From positions 38,194-102,193 of the IMG/VR virus record IMGVR_UViG_3300040801_001810: 64,000 bases of DNA. One strand, written 5' to 3'. Below the pieces are notes generated by a model. That model searched no databases and was not told the origin of the DNA. It worked only from the letters and a program-made list of their open reading frames with translations. How positions within the stretch are numbered: the stretch's first letter is position 1; every line of letters starts with the position of its first letter. The position numbers were made by a program, and so were the translations under genes. The DNA comes from a virus. Its lineage: Duplodnaviria; Heunggongvirae; Uroviricota; Caudoviricetes. This document shows positions 1 to 7,709 of this stretch, one piece after another.

Positions 1-525
1 GCACAACATATAGAAAGACTTATTGACCTTAAACAGATTTCAGATATGAAATTCACATTCTATGATGACGACATAGTAGAACTAAAGAACATACTTTATC
101 AGAATTTTGAGACAAGCGATATTGATTCTAATAAGACAGATGCATTGGCTACCAAGTTTTTTAATATAAATTTTGATACCAAGAGATTAGACCTTGAGGA
201 TCTTAAAGAAAGCGATTTAATAATTCTCTGTGCAGATAATAATAAAATTAGAAAAGAAGCTTGGGAAGCATGGACTAAATATAATATTAAATTTATTGAC
301 TCAAGAGCAAATGGAAGAGCAATTGGTATCTTTTCCAGCGACACTGAAAATTATATTAAAACAATTAGTGATAGCGACAAGCCATCTTCATGCCAGAATC
401 CATTTCAAATAGCTAAGAAAGAAATTGAATATGGTAATGTAGTTATAGCGTCAGCCTTAGCACAAGTTGTATTAAATTACAGTAGATCAAAAAGGTTACC
501 ACCAGACTTTATGATTAACCTATAG
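1..525 (+). CDS. ThiF/MoeB/E1-like adenylating enzyme (5' end outside window)
   Basis: Frame is open from base 1 (AQHIERLIDLKQISD-MKFTF). Contains the ThiF motif YDDDIVELKNILYQNF (D-x-D-x-V-E-x-x-N), then NKTDALA, LIILCADNNKIR, FIDSRANG, candidate catalytic Cys in SSCQ, and closing helix NVVIASALAQ. The GxGxxG loop would lie upstream of the window. Confidence 0.88.
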   Translation, partial: AQHIERLIDLKQISDMKFTFYDDDIVELKNILYQNFETSDIDSNKTDALATKFFNINFDTKRLDLEDLKESDLIILCADNNKIRKEAWEAWTKYNIKFIDSRANGRAIGIFSSDTENYIKTISDSDKPSSCQNPFQIAKKEIEYGNVVIASALAQVVLNYSRSKRLPPDFMINL

Positions 526-536
526 GAATAAGAATA

Positions 537-2915
537 ATGAAATCAAGACCAACAACGAAGACAACATATGATACAATGGGTTTAATAGATCATCTACTTG
601 ATATTAAATTAGACTCTGATAGTTTCGCAACAAACGAAAAAATAATTGATAAAGTAAGCGATGTTATAGATCAAATCGCTAACGTAGAAGGATATTCACT
701 ACTATCTATTACAAAAGACAATAATAGAAAACTAATACTGTTAGCATCATCAGGAAAAACTACCTCATGTTTTACTTGGTCTCTTAAAAATTCAATTGAT
801 ACCAAAGTAGATGCAGAAATATATGAGACAAATTTAAAATCGAATTTATATGAAGTCTTACAACAAGATGGCTGGCATTCTTCTGAAGCATATGCCTCTG
901 CATGTATAGTAGAAACATTAAATGGTTATGCTGTCAATTTAAATCAGTTAGCTAAATTCAAAGATTTTAAACAGACAGACCCAATGAAGCATAGTTCTTT
1001 TATTGTAAGTCATTCAGAAATAGAACATAAAGATGTAGTATTACTAGGAAAAAGAACACTGAGAAAATTAAAAGAAGAAAAAATTAAAACAAAAGAAATT
1101 ATAGAGAACCATACCAATAAAGTATGTAAAGATATTCCATTTGTACTAAAAATTAATAATATATATCCGAAAGAAAAAGGATTTATCTCAGCTAAGATAA
1201 CAGATGTATGGGAAGTTGCTGGCGTAAGATGGTATAGAATGTCAGTCTTAAGATATGATAGTGAAGGTATAGGAACAGCCAATTACTTCCATGGATTCAT
1301 AGTCGGTAAATCATCAGCAGGTGTAACTGGTGACGATATGAATGTCAAACAAATAGGTAATTCATATTGTTGTTTAAATTCAGCCAACAAATGGTCAGGT
1401 ACTCCTGAGCATTATAAAATAGATAACCTAGAAAGAATTCCATTTAATTTAATTGATACAGGAAGATGTTTTCTTGGCTTTAGAACTGATACTTATGACT
1501 GGCATTTATTGATTAGTTCAGATCCAATGGTAGATAAAAATTATCTTGAGACCTTTGAAAAAGACATAGATAAATTTCTATTACAACAAAGTCTTGATAC
1601 TCTAGATATGGAAGAAACAGTAATTGAAAAATCTGATACAAATACATCCATGGAATTTGATTCGTATAAAGATAATCTTAAACAAGAAGAAAATGCTCCT
1701 ACTGGAAGACAGTTAGTTCTTAAGACAATTAAAAAGATGGCTGATGAGTATAATTATATTGTTAAGAAAAATACATCTATTGGAGAAGATGTTACAGTTA
1801 CAGACGCAATTAAGTATAATCATAATGAAGGTAAGATTATATATAATGACTTTAGTATTGCAGTTGATGATGAGTGGATGAAATCCAAGCTACACGAGAT
1901 GTTTCAACGATACTTGGTTGATTTCTATAGAGATAGTAAAACAGAACAACAAGTATTAGACGAAATTACTAATAACTTTTTTAGTAAACTCGAATCAAGA
2001 TTAAAGACTTTACATAGAGAACCAACATTAATACCATTAAAATTAAACGAAGCAATCGATGTTAGTCTAGAGATAAAAGTATCAACTACAAAAAAAGAAG
2101 GATTAGATAATAAGAAACCTGGAGCAAGTTATTACTATTTAAATGGACAACGATTTAATAAAAACGAAATTATTATTGTACTAAAAGAAATGACTTGCTA
2201 TAGAAATCAAGAAGAAGCAAATAGTTTTATTAGAAATATAGGAAGACTAGGACTCTCTGTATACATAGGAATAACAACAGGTTATGAAATCTGTATGAAT
2301 CCTAATGTTGAAGAAGAGGAAGATAAAATATATAGAATATTTAGATTCAAGAAACTAAAAGGTAGATCAAATTATCAATTAGTTTTAGATGGATCATACG
2401 TTCCTATTAAAGGAAAGAAGCTAATTAATATTCTATATAATGACTTCATAGAAGAATATGTTCCTGGATTCGAAGAGAAAATACCAAAACTAATATTAGA
2501 AAGTAGCCAATCAGCTAAAGAATATATAAAATATAAGGTATTAATAGATTCTTCCTATAATTCTTTTAAAGAAAAAGCAAAAGAATTCCTTACCAGAAAA
2601 ATAGATGAAGTAGGAGCTAAGGAAACTAAGTACTTTAATAGAAAAGCACGTAAGATATTAGATGCAATTGAGGTTGATGGAGCATCAAATAATAAGTATA
2701 TTATAGCATATGATACAAAGGATTCTTATGTATTCATTTCACCAGAATACGATGAAGAGAATGAATATTTTAAAGATGGAAAATACATATGTATGATAGA
2801 TCAAAGTAATATCAAATCCAACATTAGCTACGACACAGTAGTAGCTAAGTTATTGGCACTTAAGAATGATTCAAGTATAGCACATACAATATATAATTTG
2901 GAGGAAGAACTATGA
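537..2915 (+). CDS. large hypothetical protein between E1 and Ubl (candidate E2-like or substrate)
   Basis: 792-aa ORF with AGGA RBS. C-terminal DGKYICMIDQ...YDTVVAKLLALKND carries a lone Cys. Stop overlaps the Ubl start (ATGA). Confidence 0.8.
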   Translation: MKSRPTTKTTYDTMGLIDHLLDIKLDSDSFATNEKIIDKVSDVIDQIANVEGYSLLSITKDNNRKLILLASSGKTTSCFTWSLKNSIDTKVDAEIYETNLKSNLYEVLQQDGWHSSEAYASACIVETLNGYAVNLNQLAKFKDFKQTDPMKHSSFIVSHSEIEHKDVVLLGKRTLRKLKEEKIKTKEIIENHTNKVCKDIPFVLKINNIYPKEKGFISAKITDVWEVAGVRWYRMSVLRYDSEGIGTANYFHGFIVGKSSAGVTGDDMNVKQIGNSYCCLNSANKWSGTPEHYKIDNLERIPFNLIDTGRCFLGFRTDTYDWHLLISSDPMVDKNYLETFEKDIDKFLLQQSLDTLDMEETVIEKSDTNTSMEFDSYKDNLKQEENAPTGRQLVLKTIKKMADEYNYIVKKNTSIGEDVTVTDAIKYNHNEGKIIYNDFSIAVDDEWMKSKLHEMFQRYLVDFYRDSKTEQQVLDEITNNFFSKLESRLKTLHREPTLIPLKLNEAIDVSLEIKVSTTKKEGLDNKKPGASYYYLNGQRFNKNEIIIVLKEMTCYRNQEEANSFIRNIGRLGLSVYIGITTGYEICMNPNVEEEEDKIYRIFRFKKLKGRSNYQLVLDGSYVPIKGKKLINILYNDFIEEYVPGFEEKIPKLILESSQSAKEYIKYKVLIDSSYNSFKEKAKEFLTRKIDEVGAKETKYFNRKARKILDAIEVDGASNNKYIIAYDTKDSYVFISPEYDEENEYFKDGKYICMIDQSNIKSNISYDTVVAKLLALKNDSSIAHTIYNLEEEL

Positions 2916-3121
2916 TAAACATAGAAAGAACTACTGAAACAGGGTACTTACAGAAAGAATATGAAAAAGATGAAGCTCTTCAAGTTCTTAATACAGAACT
3001 GGAAAATGACAGAACAATCTGGATCGATGGAAAATTATTCTCTGGAGAAATAATTACTAGTGATGACCTTGATACATGTAAAAAGGGAATCTGTGTAACT
3101 AATAAACTAATTGGTGGATAA
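2912..3121 (+). CDS. ubiquitin-like (ThiS/MoaD-type beta-grasp) protein
   Basis: 69 aa with GGAGG RBS at 2900-2904. Pattern is beta-beta-alpha-beta (TIWIDG) then beta (ICVTNKLIGG-stop), ending exactly in di-glycine, two genes downstream of an E1. Confidence 0.8.
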   Translation: MINIERTTETGYLQKEYEKDEALQVLNTELENDRTIWIDGKLFSGEIITSDDLDTCKKGICVTNKLIGG

Positions 3122-3122
3122 T

Positions 3123-3743
3123 ATGATTTTTAATCTAACAAGCGAAGGAAGTTTTAAAGTGCCATATAATGAGAAAGCTAATGCATGGAATGTAGATTTC
3201 GATGATATCGTCTTATCAAATTCTATGAGAAGTTATTTTAAGGAAGAACTTAAATACAAAAAAGATACTATAAGTCAGACGGAAAGTATTATAAGTCCTA
3301 AGACTCCAGAATATATAGCTTTAAACAATGCTTGTAAGATGTCTATTGGTAATTCATTACGAGTATTAGTGGTTGATGAGAAAGACAAACTCAGAATACC
3401 GCTAATACTCAAGTATAATATAAAAAATAAGTTAACTTTATTTAAAGATTATACAAGTAGACATATGATATCATCTATATTAAAGAATTGTATCATGGAT
3501 TCAAAAGGATCTTTATCAGAAGGAATGCTAAGAGGCATGTACCTTATGTATTACTATTGGTTCTTCCGTAAAGATTCCATTAAAGAAATAACAAGTAATG
3601 TTTGTGTAGATATGGAGAATATGATATCATTAGTAATGGATAAAGCACAGACTTTATATCGATCATATGACACAGTGTCTGTTGTATATAAATTAAGAGA
3701 AAAGCTATCATCAGAGAAGGTGATACTAGCAGGATCAATATGA
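3123..3743 (+). CDS. hypothetical protein
   Basis: ORF in the operon; ATG 3123 directly follows the Ubl stop. Confidence 0.75.
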   Translation: MIFNLTSEGSFKVPYNEKANAWNVDFDDIVLSNSMRSYFKEELKYKKDTISQTESIISPKTPEYIALNNACKMSIGNSLRVLVVDEKDKLRIPLILKYNIKNKLTLFKDYTSRHMISSILKNCIMDSKGSLSEGMLRGMYLMYYYWFFRKDSIKEITSNVCVDMENMISLVMDKAQTLYRSYDTVSVVYKLREKLSSEKVILAGSI

Positions 3744-4114
3744 AATGGGTAGCAGTAGTTAGAGAAGAAAAATTAGTAATTAATAATTCAGAAATAGACT
3801 TTGATACTTTTAGATTCCTAACTAGTAAGAATATAGACTTTAGTAAAAGAATAAATAAGAGAATAATAATTACTAAAGAAAATGGGCACATATATGTTAG
3901 TGATTTTAGCTTCATAAAAGGCGAGACATATACAATGAAGATGCCAAACTTTATGATTGGTGCAAAATCGGATAAAATAATTCATGTTTATAAATGTATT
4001 GAGATAGACAAAGATGATAATGTTTTATTATCGCCAGTAACAGATTCATTTGGAACATTAAGTGTAGTAAATGATGCTCATAGTTGGTATATATATACAA
4101 AAGGAAAAAAATGA
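3740..4114 (+). CDS. hypothetical protein
   Basis: 124-aa ORF with ATGA overlaps at both ends. Confidence 0.75.
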   Translation: MKWVAVVREEKLVINNSEIDFDTFRFLTSKNIDFSKRINKRIIITKENGHIYVSDFSFIKGETYTMKMPNFMIGAKSDKIIHVYKCIEIDKDDNVLLSPVTDSFGTLSVVNDAHSWYIYTKGKK

Positions 4115-6546
4115 AGGTACCATTATCAGTATACTCGGCAGACGAGTATCTACTAATATATAGAAACGGCGGTATAGATAAAGCAGACTTTCCATTCAAA
4201 CCATTCTTACTAATAGAATCAGAACACTTTCCATCTTCTCATTCATCTGAAATTTGGACAAAAGTTCCAGAGAATGAAGAAAGAAAATATAAAAGGATAG
4301 AGTTTAATTCGCAGAAAGAGTTATTTGATTTTAAGAAAAGAAACTCTTCGCTATCTAAATATATAATGTCTAATCAGTATTTAGAACAGCTATATATATC
4401 ACAAGAAGATTTCATGTTAAATTATCCTCATACAAATGATTTAACAATAATGTTCTTTGATATTGAGACTGCTACTTTTGGGGATGGTCTATTTTCTAAG
4501 CCGCTTACCTGTCCAATTTTATGTATTGGTTACAGTATATGGAAGTATACAAACGATGGAAAGAAACATAAAGTACATCAAGAAATATGCAAAGGCTTTG
4601 ATTTAGAAAATATGACAGATAAAGTCATTCTAGATAAATTCTTCGATGGAATACAAGAACATGATCCAGACATCATAGCTGGTTACTATAGCGAAGAATT
4701 CGATATGCCTTACATAGTAGAGAGAGCACAGATAGTTGGCTCTGATCTAAAGAAGATGTGTAGAGGAGGAAGAGAACCATCAATATCAGATAACAAAGGA
4801 AATAGAAAGATAAGACTTCCTGGAAGAATACACTTTGATATACTTACATCAAATTCAGGAGTAGTTAAAGATCAGACACTATTTGGTATTAAATCTAGGT
4901 CATTAAAAGAAATGGCTAGGTGGTATAAGATTAAAAGAACTATTAAAGAAGGCGACCAGTGGATAGAGAAACAATTAGACGACATAGAAATCAAAGAAGA
5001 TATTGAGAATACTATAAATTTATTCAAAACGAATGTTGAAAGACTATATGCATACCAAGACGATGATGTATATAGAACAGAAGGAGTTGGTCACGTATAT
5101 TTAAGAAACTGTATTACACTAGCTGAGATGATGCATGTTCCTCTTGAAAATATTATTAATATGTATTCTAGTTTTGTACCAAAGCTGTTCGTAGCTAGAC
5201 ACATGGAAAAACTAAGATTAATTAATACTGAGACAAATTTTAATAAGTATAATATACAAAACGGATCTATCTCAGAAGTAGGAACAAAGTACGAAGGAGC
5301 TACAGTAGGATTATATAAGGACGGATATTTTGATGCAACATGGAAGCTTGACTTTGCCTCTCAGTATCCATCGTCTATTCAGACATGGAATCTTGGTCCA
5401 GATACTACGTCGCTAGTTAGAGTCGAAGAATATACAGGAACTTATAATTGTATAGTTAAAGGAAACTATAACTGGTACAGAATTCCTACCAAGTTTGAGA
5501 AGGGTAAATATGCCTATGACTTTATAGTCAAGGTACGAAATGATAAAGAAGGATTCCTTGCTAGAGAAATTAAACGACTTAAGGCAGAACGTAAAATAAT
5601 TAAAGCTGAAATGAAAAAAGCAGATGATGAAACTAGGGCTACTCTTAACTCACAACAGAATGCTATTAAGGTAATCATGAACTCGATTTATGGATTCCTT
5701 GGTCTGAAGTCATCAGTATACGGAGAAATGACTAGTGCAGTAATGGTTACAGCTATGTGTCGATGGAGTATTCTAAAATGTATGCAACGTAATGTAGACT
5801 GTCTAGTAGAAACAGACACAGATGGAATAGTAGTCGATAAGTTCTTAGATGCAAAAGAAGAAAATGATTGGCTTGACGAACAAATTAGAAACAAGTTCCA
5901 TGTCAAAGAAAATGCTATGGAATTAGAATTAGAAGGTAACGGAGAACGAGCATATTTTTACTTAATGAAAAACTATGTAATAGAAAATGAACCTGGTGAT
6001 TTTAATATACATGGTTCATCTCTTAAGGCATCTCGAGCAGCAAAGGTAATTGATAGAGCAGTTAACTTAGGTATTGAATATATATTTAATAACAAGTCTC
6101 CAGAAGATGTAATCCTTGAAGCATTTAACTTTTCTAATCTAGAAATGGATGACTTTGTAGAAAGAGTAAAACTATCAAAAGATCCTTCTGCTTACGACGA
6201 TCCATATGATTATAGATTATTCTTAGCTAAGCAAGTAGAAGTTAAGACAGGACAGATTATTACTAAGGGTATACAGATGAGTTATGTGGTAACTAAAGAT
6301 GAGTTACCATATGAACAATTCAAACCTTATTATAAAGAAGGCAAAAATTATACGTTTGTTCAATTTGTAAATTCAAAAGAAGAATTAAATATGAGTTATT
6401 ATAAAGATCTTGTTGATAAGACTCTTATGAAGTTCGGATTATCAGAAAAGAAATGGATGCAAACGGATTTATTTTCAGCAGAAACAATAGATAAGAAACC
6501 AATAAAGTCTAAAGCTTTAGATATAGTACCTATGGAGGAACTATGA
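4111..6546 (+). CDS. polB: family B DNA polymerase with 3'-5' exonuclease
   Basis: ExoI FFDIET, ExoII GYYSEEFDMPYI, ExoIII YQDDDV; polymerase motif A LDFASQYPS, B QNAIKVIMNSIYG, C ETDTDG. Start placed at ATG 4111 after AAGGA. Confidence 0.96.
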   Translation: MKVPLSVYSADEYLLIYRNGGIDKADFPFKPFLLIESEHFPSSHSSEIWTKVPENEERKYKRIEFNSQKELFDFKKRNSSLSKYIMSNQYLEQLYISQEDFMLNYPHTNDLTIMFFDIETATFGDGLFSKPLTCPILCIGYSIWKYTNDGKKHKVHQEICKGFDLENMTDKVILDKFFDGIQEHDPDIIAGYYSEEFDMPYIVERAQIVGSDLKKMCRGGREPSISDNKGNRKIRLPGRIHFDILTSNSGVVKDQTLFGIKSRSLKEMARWYKIKRTIKEGDQWIEKQLDDIEIKEDIENTINLFKTNVERLYAYQDDDVYRTEGVGHVYLRNCITLAEMMHVPLENIINMYSSFVPKLFVARHMEKLRLINTETNFNKYNIQNGSISEVGTKYEGATVGLYKDGYFDATWKLDFASQYPSSIQTWNLGPDTTSLVRVEEYTGTYNCIVKGNYNWYRIPTKFEKGKYAYDFIVKVRNDKEGFLAREIKRLKAERKIIKAEMKKADDETRATLNSQQNAIKVIMNSIYGFLGLKSSVYGEMTSAVMVTAMCRWSILKCMQRNVDCLVETDTDGIVVDKFLDAKEENDWLDEQIRNKFHVKENAMELELEGNGERAYFYLMKNYVIENEPGDFNIHGSSLKASRAAKVIDRAVNLGIEYIFNNKSPEDVILEAFNFSNLEMDDFVERVKLSKDPSAYDDPYDYRLFLAKQVEVKTGQIITKGIQMSYVVTKDELPYEQFKPYYKEGKNYTFVQFVNSKEELNMSYYKDLVDKTLMKFGLSEKKWMQTDLFSAETIDKKPIKSKALDIVPMEEL

Positions 6547-6761
6547 TAACTACTAAGTACTTATATGTATCTCAATCTAAACAATATGGTAAGCTAACCA
6601 CTAGAATGACTTCAACTAAAGGTAATGTAAAGAAGAATGAAATATGTCTTAAGTTAAATATAGATGTACCAAAAGAAGCATTCATTGATAGTACTCCACA
6701 AGTTGATATAGAGATACCAAAAGATTATAAAAAAAGAACTATTAACTTGAGGATGTCATGA
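6543..6761 (+). CDS. hypothetical protein
   Basis: 72 aa, GGAGG RBS, translationally coupled at both ends. Confidence 0.75.
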   Translation: MITTKYLYVSQSKQYGKLTTRMTSTKGNVKKNEICLKLNIDVPKEAFIDSTPQVDIEIPKDYKKRTINLRMS

Positions 6762-7336
6762 TAAAATTTGGAAACCATAAACTAGGAGACGATACTGCTA
6801 TATTTAATATGGGAACAGCAATGGAATGTCCTTCGAGAAAGTTAGGATTATGTTATGCAGTCAACAACAATATCAAATGCTACGCAGAAAAGCCAGAACA
6901 ACAGTATCCAAACACCGTACCAGCTGCAAGAAAGCGCCAAGAGCTTCTCTGGAAATCTAAGAGCGGTCGTGAACTCCTTGAACAATTTAAACAAAAAATT
7001 GATAGAAGACGAAAAGACACCAGATTTTTGCGATATAATGAATCTGGCGATTTCTACAACCAGCAGGACATTGCAAAATTGTCTTATATTGCTGAAGGTC
7101 TTAAGACAATTGGAATCGTTACCTATGGATACACAGCTAGATCAGACTTGGATTTCACAGGAGTCAGCTTTCTGGTCAAAGGAAGTGGACACAATAAAGG
7201 AAATAATGGAACATCTATTATCTTGCGAAACGGAGACGAGTTGCCTAAAGGATTTATTCTATGCCCAGGCAGTTGCAAGCGGTGTAACCTTTGCAAAATA
7301 GATGTACCTCACAACATAGCGTTTAGGAAACACTAA
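6758..7336 (+). CDS. Gp88-like Cys-rich (radical-SAM-related) phage protein
   Basis: ECP..LC..KCYA triad, RYNESGDF, YGYTAR, C-terminal CPGSCKRCNLC...IAFRKH, as in GP88-family proteins. Confidence 0.75.
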   Translation: MIKFGNHKLGDDTAIFNMGTAMECPSRKLGLCYAVNNNIKCYAEKPEQQYPNTVPAARKRQELLWKSKSGRELLEQFKQKIDRRRKDTRFLRYNESGDFYNQQDIAKLSYIAEGLKTIGIVTYGYTARSDLDFTGVSFLVKGSGHNKGNNGTSIILRNGDELPKGFILCPGSCKRCNLCKIDVPHNIAFRKH

Positions 7337-7503
7337 TGAATAAAACTAAAGAATTTTGTAAGTGTGTAAATAAAAAAGTAGAAACAACCATTGAAAGAAA
7401 AGTAGCTCGAGATGGTACATTTAAAGGCTTAGCAACTTATGCTGAGAGATGTTCCAAGTGTGGACATGCGTTCTACACTTGGGGTAAATTTTATAACCAA
7501 TAG
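7336..7503 (+). CDS. small zinc-ribbon protein (not in ORF track)
   Basis: 55 aa, MNKTKEFCKCV...ERCSKCGHAF; starts in a TAATG overlap and fills the gap. Confidence 0.65.
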   Translation: MNKTKEFCKCVNKKVETTIERKVARDGTFKGLATYAERCSKCGHAFYTWGKFYNQ

Positions 7504-7511
7504 GAGAGAGA

Positions 7512-7709
7512 ATGCATTTAGCTATAACAGATATGAGGGCAGTACTACAAGCAAGAACAGCAGGAATGGTAAGTAAGAAAGCATCTGAAGATCCAACAGA
7601 TATCTTGGCTGGAGTCGCAGATATTAGAACTGTACTTAATGAAATGGAAAATTACGCTAACAACTTAATAGTGGAGCGAGAAAAACTTGAACAAGAAACA
7701 AGTGTTTAA
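7512..7709 (+). CDS. hypothetical helical protein
   Basis: 65 aa with AGGAG RBS. Confidence 0.7.
   Translation: MHLAITDMRAVLQARTAGMVSKKASEDPTDILAGVADIRTVLNEMENYANNLIVEREKLEQETSV

Follow-up and report, generated by a model that had tools for sequence, protein, structure and literature searches.

The window analysed here, 64,000 nt of DNA from a phage of the class Caudoviricetes (bases 38194-102193 of IMG/VR record IMGVR_UViG_3300040801_001810), opens with three plus-strand genes for a minimal E1-like adenylase of the ThiF family, a 792-amino-acid (aa) protein of an unnamed family and a 69-aa ubiquitin-like protein (Ubl) that ends in Gly-Gly. The E1-like protein and the Ubl are very probably a cognate activation pair, and we give an even chance to the view that the three genes together form a phage-owned module of Ubl activation and transfer. 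An earlier sequence-only reading had seen a phage protein-tagging system in these genes; the pairing of an E1 with a Gly-Gly Ubl is now borne out by fold, by the conserved Gly-Gly end and by gene order, while it is plausible and unproven that the pathway ends in protein conjugation, with about as much speaking for this as against it. The source record is 230,193 bp long, carries direct terminal repeats and is rated 100% complete; G+C content is about 30% and transcription runs rightwards across the first 38 kb. All three reading frames lie where that reading had placed them, and the idea that they are chance open reading frames was rejected; the observation holds, at a level that chance does not come near. 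The E1-like gene occupies 1..525 of the window (residues 17-190 of 190) and begins 48 nt upstream of it (L002:11953-12525 in the upstream DNA, which was also read; window position equals L002 position minus 12000; L-numbers denote the loci read). It is followed after an 11-nt gap by the gene of the 792-aa protein (537..2915), which overlaps the Ubl gene (2912..3121) by ATGA, and a single nucleotide separates the Ubl stop from the ATG of the next gene at 3123. The cassette genes are thus translationally coupled in the window.

The C-terminus of the Ubl is LIGG, encoded up to the Gly-Gly codons GGT GGA (3113-3118) and followed directly by the stop codon (3119-3121). As the protein ends in ...NK-LIGG, trypsin would leave LIGG, and not diGly, on a lysine that carries it. 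The alignment of this protein comprises 22 sequences: the window Ubl, 18 small homologues found with HMMER among 1.84 billion representatives, each aligned through its last residue, and three from related loci. All 22 end exactly in N-x-L-x-G-G, and N64, L66, G68 and G69 are the only invariant columns. It had been considered that the Gly-Gly codons are merely the ribosome-binding site (RBS) of the next gene. This is ruled out by synonymous changes, the codons being GGT, GGA and GGC in varied combinations across 11 loci, and by locus L009, in which the next conserved gene lies 69 nt downstream, an AAGGAGG box stands after the Ubl stop codon, no RBS role is left for the Gly-Gly codons and the Gly-Gly is still present. 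Such codon variation, with the Gly-Gly kept in L009, indicates selection on the amino acids. The Ubl gene has its own RBS, as had been proposed: GGAGGA at 2900..2905 on the plus strand, read from the sequence 7 nt before the ATG and sitting within Leu-Glu-Glu codons of the preceding gene. Three weak, long matches (P0087 to P0089) turned out to be unrelated repeat proteins.

The assignment of the 69-aa protein to the beta-grasp class, guessed at first from its sequence pattern, stood up to modelling. The AlphaFold2 model has a predicted local distance difference test score (pLDDT) of 89 and the order beta-beta-alpha-beta-alpha-beta, and the best 50 Foldseek matches in PDB are all ubiquitin, NEDD8 or SUMO (probability 0.89-0.99, TM-score about 0.5, E about 1e-2). 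With VIA-align, residues 1-69 matched ISG15 (Z 5.0), Fubi, MoaD (4.6-4.7), SUMO, RA/RBD/PB1 domains and the bacterial Bil Ubl (8tyz_B, 4.1) at Z 4-5.3, nearly all of them beta-grasp proteins; such scores show the fold class and cannot tell modifier and sulfur carrier apart. None of the 22 members was matched by a Pfam family, ThiS (PF02597) gave no match even at E up to 10, and nothing credible was found for the window protein in Pfam, PHROGs, NCBIfam or PADLOC.

Judged by its sequence, the E1-like gene is a true member of the ThiF family, in agreement with the sequence-only reading. Pfam ThiF (PF00899) matches the window fragment with 34.8 bits (E 1.2e-8) and the genome-wide search gave 48.4 bits (E 6.6e-14), both above the gathering cut-off of 28.1. 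The full-length protein of 190 aa starts with MQKVKVIGCGGIGS, which includes the GxGxxG loop that was expected upstream of the window. Its homologues are 54-73% identical to the window protein (54-100% in the alignment of 26 homologues), so that it is far more conserved than the 792-aa protein or the Ubl. Invariant in all 26 are G8 and G10-G13 (GxGGIG), D38, D40, K45, N46, Y49, Q50, K61, D95, N96, R100 and S146-C147-Q148, the last being the SSCQ motif whose cysteine, Cys147, had been named as catalytic candidate (codons in the window: Lys45 85-87, Tyr49 97-99, Lys61 133-135, Asp95 235-237, Cys147 391-393). GxGGIG, D38/D40, K61 and D95-N96 align with E. coli ThiF, and by ThiF/MoeB numbering they correspond to the nucleotide loop, the ribose-binding Asp, the phosphate Lys and the Mg-binding Asp. 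The protein is a minimal E1 core in which most of the nucleotide site survives, and it is the most reduced E1-like protein known to us. The named families closest to it are PRTRC-ThiF, ThiF and MoeB, all of them far under the family cut-offs; E. coli ThiF is matched with a profile E of 1.2e-4, and the Cap2 E1-E2 models of PADLOC cover no more than the Rossmann start (residues 2-77), with E values of 3e-7 or weaker.

The three genes travel together. The order E1 (188-196 aa), protein of about 780 aa, Ubl (68-75 aa) is found in ten of ten distinct long loci, the window included, so the synteny that homologue searches were meant to check is present, and it is kept though the large protein falls to 28% identity. 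Two of these loci, both from divergent relatives, have a Cpn10 (GroES) gene inserted between the large gene and the Ubl (L005:7369-7659 and L014:7308-7589), and one has small extra open reading frames. In four short contigs from the search with the Ubl side, the ...IYNLE[ED]EL end of the large protein stands immediately upstream of the Ubl gene. In a survey of 185,579 species-representative genomes the family occurs on only two contigs, of 136-197 kb, in metagenome-assembled genomes with the discordant labels Bathyarchaeia and Omnitrophota; we read them as mis-binned phage DNA. Among GenBank phages, megablast of the region and tblastn of the 792-aa protein gave no match. A scan of IMG/VR with the single 792-aa sequence found nothing, and an alignment-based scan with its family found three loci. 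Among the public sequencing runs listed as containing this DNA are ones labelled as microbial mat metagenome and as unspecified metagenomes, a lake-water run contains a small share of it, and no RNA run was listed.

For the 792-aa protein 68 homologues were detected, about 755-812 aa long and 28-48% identical. Not one of them has a Pfam domain, and many come from contigs 100-440 kb in length. The family was found almost only on phage-sized contigs and is regarded as phage-restricted. Its conservation grows towards the C-terminus: 0.41 for residues 1-135, 0.28-0.33 for 136-400, 0.52-0.55 for 421-655, 0.66 for 656-780 and 0.84 for the tail. Only two cysteines are invariant, Cys554 (2196-2198, plus strand) and Cys752 (2790-2792), and there is no invariant His, a pattern that speaks against both a JAB and a protease of the Cys-His type. 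The acidic C-terminal tail IYNLEEEL (2879-2915) is invariant, and the presence of the Ubl RBS within its codons may place it under a dual constraint. For this protein no credible match came from Pfam, PHROGs, NCBIfam or PADLOC, and a profile search for stand-alone proteins of the C-terminal domain gave only same-family fragments on short contigs.

The AlphaFold2 model of this protein has several domains (pLDDT 77.5). Compared as a whole with PDB by Foldseek it gave nothing at E <= 0.001, and BFVD returned three unnamed viral proteins of 416-452 aa with probability 1.0 and no function attached. Shape matches from the ESM Atlas (TM <= 0.33, with one Prok-JAB-containing cluster) were of no use, the Prok-JAB row being distrusted because the family has no invariant His, and feature searches in the Atlas gave nothing. 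Residues 660-776 are modelled as a long helix, a four-strand meander, an extended segment G-K-Y-I-C752-M-I-D-Q-S and a helix 13 residues further on, an order of secondary structure that in the model appears to match the UBC core. Reduced bacterial E2s without the last two helices have been described (PMC11601596). The weak fold matches of this C-terminal domain (about 656-780) are enriched in UBC, RWD and UEV proteins: with VIA-align, residues 679-785 matched the KMN kinetochore RWD (Z 5.2), FANCL (4.4), Vps23 UEV (4.4), the E2 domain of Cap2 (7to3_A residues 9-152, 4.2), a Plasmodium E2 (4.1) and Knl1 RWD (3.9), where Z 4-5 can also reflect a common arrangement. Similarly weak were the matches of residues 1-132 to PAS-like domains (Z about 4), of 160-400 to class II aldolase-like folds (4.2-4.8) and of 477-555 to YkuJ (5.9). 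The loop of residues 401-420 (1737-1796) is predicted to be disordered (pLDDT 40-49) yet is conserved (0.65), with conserved Lys residues, with E404, Y407 and G416 invariant and with D418 nearly so; it could be a docking or acceptor site. In a profile search of PDB sequences the C-terminal domain hit only an Ig-domain "DxGxYxC" look-alike, which was judged spurious.

These observations can be put together into a possible mechanism. Its best-supported step is the ATP-dependent adenylation of the free Gly-Gly carboxylate of the Ubl by the E1, the Ubl being ready to use as made, as it ends at Gly-Gly. The activated Ubl would then be passed as a thioester, perhaps via Cys147 of the E1, to Cys752 of the 792-aa protein, the C-terminal domain of which would play the part that a UBC domain has in an E2 or in an E2/E3 hybrid; the fast-evolving N-terminal half would pick the target. 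The Ubl could end up isopeptide-linked to a phage protein, to a host protein or to the 792-aa protein itself. Conjugation with the 792-aa protein as carrier is favoured by the position of Cys752 in the best-conserved domain with UBC-like order, by the variable N-terminal half, by strict linkage and by the missing sulfur context. Still, we hold the role of thioester carrier for this protein only as a tentative suggestion, the E2-like nature of its C-terminal domain, as judged from the model, likewise seems less likely than not, and the complete picture, in which a lineage of large phages would run its own Ubl conjugation with the smallest known E1, working without the canonical Arg, a Gly-Gly Ubl and an enzyme of about 780 aa resembling an E2/E3 hybrid and selecting phage targets or host targets such as defence or replication factors, is rather less probable than its negation. 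The large Cys-domain protein of the earlier description resembles E2s weakly by fold (Z 4-5) and shows no E2 signal in its sequence.

Several results weigh against such a conjugation system. On the side of the 792-aa protein, these are the ambiguity of the fold matches just given, the lack of any Prok-E2 or UQ_con Pfam signal in 28 C-terminal domains at E up to 10, a search with the profile of this domain against PDB sequences which returned nothing relevant, and the lack of an HPN-type motif and of an invariant His in the family. Divergent prokaryotic E2s are often without an HPN-type motif and without sequence signal. On the side of the E1, KNILYQNF aligns without gaps to SNLQRQ of E. coli ThiF and to SNLNRQNY of 9egc, a solved ThiF-type protein, and the Arg of the [SN]NLxRQ motif, which is conserved and contacts ATP across the superfamily, is replaced by the invariant Tyr49. 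The invariant Lys45 stands at the superfamily's Ser position beside this motif and might compensate for the lost Arg. About 30 N-terminal residues which precede the GxGxxG loop in ThiF/MoeB are missing, so that the protein begins 3 residues before strand 1 and has no trans Arg-finger helix; without this helix and with Tyr for the motif Arg, adenylation is inferred rather than assured. The lack of CxxC, noted before for the part visible in the window, holds for all 190 aa, there is no C-terminal beta domain, and the protein ends about 43 residues past Cys147. E1s of the ThiF/MoeB type carry a pair of CxxC zinc motifs as well as a C-terminal beta domain (about 60 aa) that binds the Ubl. By its spacing to the following helix only, Cys147 itself is presumed to correspond to Cys184 of ThiF and Cys187 of MoeB. 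The fold scores of the Ubl fit a sulfur carrier just as well, no deconjugating peptidase was found in the phage's own genome or in three related records, and the targets (host proteins, defence proteins or a decoy role) are pure inference.

The main rival explanation is that the Ubl carries sulfur: the E1 would adenylate it, a host persulfide would convert it to a thiocarboxylate and the 792-aa protein would thiolate a nucleic acid, a nucleotide or a metabolite. It can be argued for from the best sequence matches of the E1, which are ThiF, MoeB and PRTRC-ThiF and not Uba-type E1s, from its single small adenylation domain as in enzymes of sulfur pathways, from a Ubl-MoaD Z level with the ubiquitin-type matches, from the lack of a JAB and of a sequence-detectable E2, and from the position of the cassette among nucleic-acid enzymes. 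To these may be added that in one relative the gene just before the E1 encodes a radical SAM protein (L003:3280-4191), with none there in the window phage. Genome content points the other way. The complete 230-kb genome has a single ThiF gene, and rhodanese, Aminotran_5 (cysteine desulfurase) and PP-loop thiolases were found nowhere in it, the sole PP-loop match being the NAD synthase NadE beside NAPRTase; the absence of sulfur-pathway partners, noted at first in the window, thus extends genome-wide for these families, while for ThiG and MoaE it is the window in which the earlier reader saw none, no genome-wide search having been made for either. Moreover, the E1 has neither CxxC nor a rhodanese module, both of which are usual where E1s relay sulfur, the 22 Ubl members give no ThiS/MoaD Pfam signal, the 792-aa protein has no known sulfur-insertion motif and its variable N-terminal half resembles a recognition module rather than an enzyme of metabolism. 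Taking both sides together we consider a sulfur carrier unlikely. The phage's own 230-kb genome has no JAB or Prok-JAB, so that the phage brings along no peptidase to trim the Ubl or to take it off, in keeping with a Ubl whose Gly-Gly is free from the start; Prok-JAB was also not found in three related whole records, and the earlier remark that no maturation protease is needed agrees with these four genomes.

Two further explanations leave the 792-aa protein or the E1 without the catalytic role of the proposed carrier mechanism. The 792-aa protein could be a substrate or scaffold, with the E1 alone attaching the Ubl in the E2-independent manner of SAMP/UbaA or Urm1 to one of its lysines, for example in loop 401-420, or to a replisome protein, and so regulating replication. 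Archaeal SAMPs and Urm1 are established cases of conjugation without an E2 (PMC9574740). No E2 was found at the sequence level, the loop is predicted to be disordered yet is conserved and holds conserved Lys residues, and polB lies within 5 kb of the cassette in most long loci. On the other hand, a mere substrate would not need Cys752 in the best-conserved domain with UBC-like order, and polB is not within 5 kb in L015, a sign that the tie to the polymerase is not absolute; we regard this explanation as somewhat more unlikely still than the sulfur carrier. Least probable of all is, to our mind, a decoy or sponge, in which a catalytically impaired E1 would be part of a module hampering the Ubl defences of the host (Bil, Bub or Cap2 of the cyclic-oligonucleotide-based antiphage signalling system, CBASS) non-catalytically, e.g. 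by sequestering Ubl, E1 or E2. The missing ATP-contacting Arg and N-terminal helix would suit an impaired enzyme, partial matches tie residues 2-77 to Cap2, and host Ubl systems that attack phages exist (10.1101/2023.09.04.556158; PMC11601596). Against it stand the invariance of GxGGIG, Asp38/40, Lys61, Asp95 and Cys147, the fact that the E1 is the best conserved of the trio, typical of an enzyme under catalytic constraint, the compensation that Lys45 could offer, and the exact and invariant free Gly-Gly end, which is hard to explain for a mere binder.

Comparison with known systems helps to place the cassette. Like the antiphage operon Bil (BilABCD, with an ISG15-like Ubl), it combines a beta-grasp Ubl with an enzyme of the E1 family, and its Cys-bearing partner might be the E2. 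Bil differs in having a JAB peptidase (BilC) and a multidomain E1 (BilD), where the phage has a single E1 domain of 190 aa and no JAB in four whole genomes; the phage partner is 792 aa long without E2 sequence signal, and the owner is a phage and not the host. With ThiF/ThiS and MoeB/MoaD, and with the conjugating variant TtuC/TtuB, the closest sequence relatives of the E1, the cassette shares a small single-domain E1 and a Gly-Gly beta-grasp partner. Unlike ThiF and MoeB, the phage E1 lacks the Arg-finger helix, CxxC and the C-terminal beta domain and has Tyr for the NLxRQ Arg, and no partner of the kind of ThiG, MoaE, TtuA, rhodanese or desulfurase was found, ThiG and MoaE being judged within the window only. 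The PRTRC systems (ParB-related, ThiF-related cassette, with ParB and the PRTRC proteins A, B, C, E and F) of plasmids and integrative and conjugative elements provide the best NCBIfam match of the E1 (TIGR03736, E 1.4e-10), and both sit on mobile elements; the match reaches 40.9 bits against a cut-off of 144.75 bits, and the remaining PRTRC models had no counterpart among the 792-aa, 69-aa and flanking proteins, with ParB not searched genome-wide. CBASS type II Cap2 and Bub (6E/DUF6527) show reduced, non-canonical prokaryotic E2/E1 domains, and the E2 of Cap2 weakly matches residues 679-784 of the 792-aa protein. Cap2 is an E2-E1 fusion that conjugates a CD-NTase and not a Ubl, whereas the phage cassette has no fusion, and no CD-NTase was present in the gene tables of related loci that were read. 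Bub, in which E1/E2 chemistry can depart from canonical residues (PMC11601596), works through oxyesters on Tyr and Ser and includes a fused JAB-E1 and a protease of the DUF6527 family; none of these parts is in the phage cassette.

A large protein with a UBC-type domain near its C-terminus and substrate-recognition regions before it is known from the eukaryotic E2/E3 hybrids UBE2O and BIRC6. The 792-aa protein would resemble them in layout by analogy, with no detectable homology, its own UBC-like fold being putative. The classical survey contains a single theme in which a phage encodes a Ubl, tail assembly protein I (TAPI) of lambda and T1 with the JAB of TAPK (PMC1779556). That is a tail-assembly module without E1 whose Ubl is fused and presumably cut by the JAB, while the present cassette has an E1, no JAB and a context of replication genes. 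Distant ThiF genes of cultured phages (Bacillus WH1, Xanthomonas PhiXhv-15 and crAss-like phages) stand in other contexts. In Xanthomonas phage PhiXhv-15 (229 kb; L013, PV764602.1 81072-89500) a 227-aa ThiF-like gene without the motif Arg (...HNLPNQ...) lies between an 892-aa Cys-rich protein with no assigned identity and a 70-aa open reading frame that does not end in Gly-Gly, with topoisomerase genes adjacent; this may be a different E1-like module of phages. The 285-aa ThiF gene of Bacillus phage vB_BceM_WH1 (L012, LC597490.1 180020-188412) has the motif Arg intact and stands beside the gene of a protein with a weak Prok-JAB match (E 0.003), together with genes for NADAR and SPFH/Band 7 proteins, and is another, JAB-containing type of phage E1 cassette.

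Bacterial Ubl conjugation has so far been described as a weapon of the host against phages (Bil, Bub, CBASS Cap2), and a conserved phage-restricted cassette of E1 and Ubl would show bacterial viruses using the same chemistry for their own ends. Were conjugation to prove complete, these phages would be the first viruses of prokaryotes with a Ubl conjugation machinery of their own, a mirror image of Bil, Bub and Cap2 immunity. An E1 of 190 aa without two elements thought to be essential informs the minimal requirements of Ubl activation and could be of use for protein-ligation tools, and the family of about 780 aa is new and possibly a new type of E2 or E2/E3 hybrid. The literature searched describes host Bil, Bub and Cap2 and phage TAPI/JAB and contains no phage E1-Ubl cassette of this kind, an absence which is not proof. 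New here are the minimal E1 core, the invariant Tyr for the NLxRQ Arg, the weakly UBC-like C-terminal domain around Cys752 and the genome-wide absences of sulfur partners and JAB.

The surroundings of the cassette are those of replication genes, and its fixed place among them suggests a role early or in the middle of infection. Directly upstream of the E1, where a JAB or E2 gene had been looked for, lie instead a PDDEXK-like nuclease, genes of no assigned function and a UDG-like protein. Downstream, on the plus strand, follow a conserved gene for a 206-aa protein (3123..3743), which comes after the Ubl in those long loci for which a gene table was read, a conserved small gene for a 124-aa protein (3740..4114) and the family B DNA polymerase gene polB (4084..6546; Pfam DNA_pol_B 2.8e-25, exo1 1.5e-17, PHROG 262). 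The 206-aa and 124-aa proteins have no family match, with nothing credible in Pfam, PHROGs, NCBIfam or PADLOC, and for the 206-aa protein the ESM Atlas gave no information either. Of the operon said to run tightly into polB the coupling is thus retained and the direct run is not, as these two genes intervene, and the next gene most likely starts at ATG 3123 instead of TTG 3111. We treat polB as genomic context, its membership in the module not being established. No plus-strand terminator-like sites were found at the cassette and promoter-like sites are not enriched there.

The polymerases of the related loci show some peculiarities of their own. In L004:8444-11863 and L014:9518-12304 polB is about 1130-1140 aa long, and faint LAGLIDADG and Hom_end matches in the former suggest, at the level of sequence, an intein or homing-endonuclease insertion. 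In the window polB ends in ...DIVPMEEL (6517-6546), and the polB tails of relatives are similar and less conserved. Small proteins near the cassettes end in ...TINLRMS, ...TINLRKD and ...TINLRRD (window 6543-6761; L003:4786-5001 and 7325-7522), and these shared endings of the ...TINLR type may be a candidate docking peptide. Outside the window, at about 207,900-211,000 of the genome (L010:45-2990), adjacent genes encode NAPRTase (E 4e-37), NadE (E 2e-39) and a Thy1-like protein; they make up a phage set for NAD salvage or regeneration, which possibly counters NAD-depleting defence.

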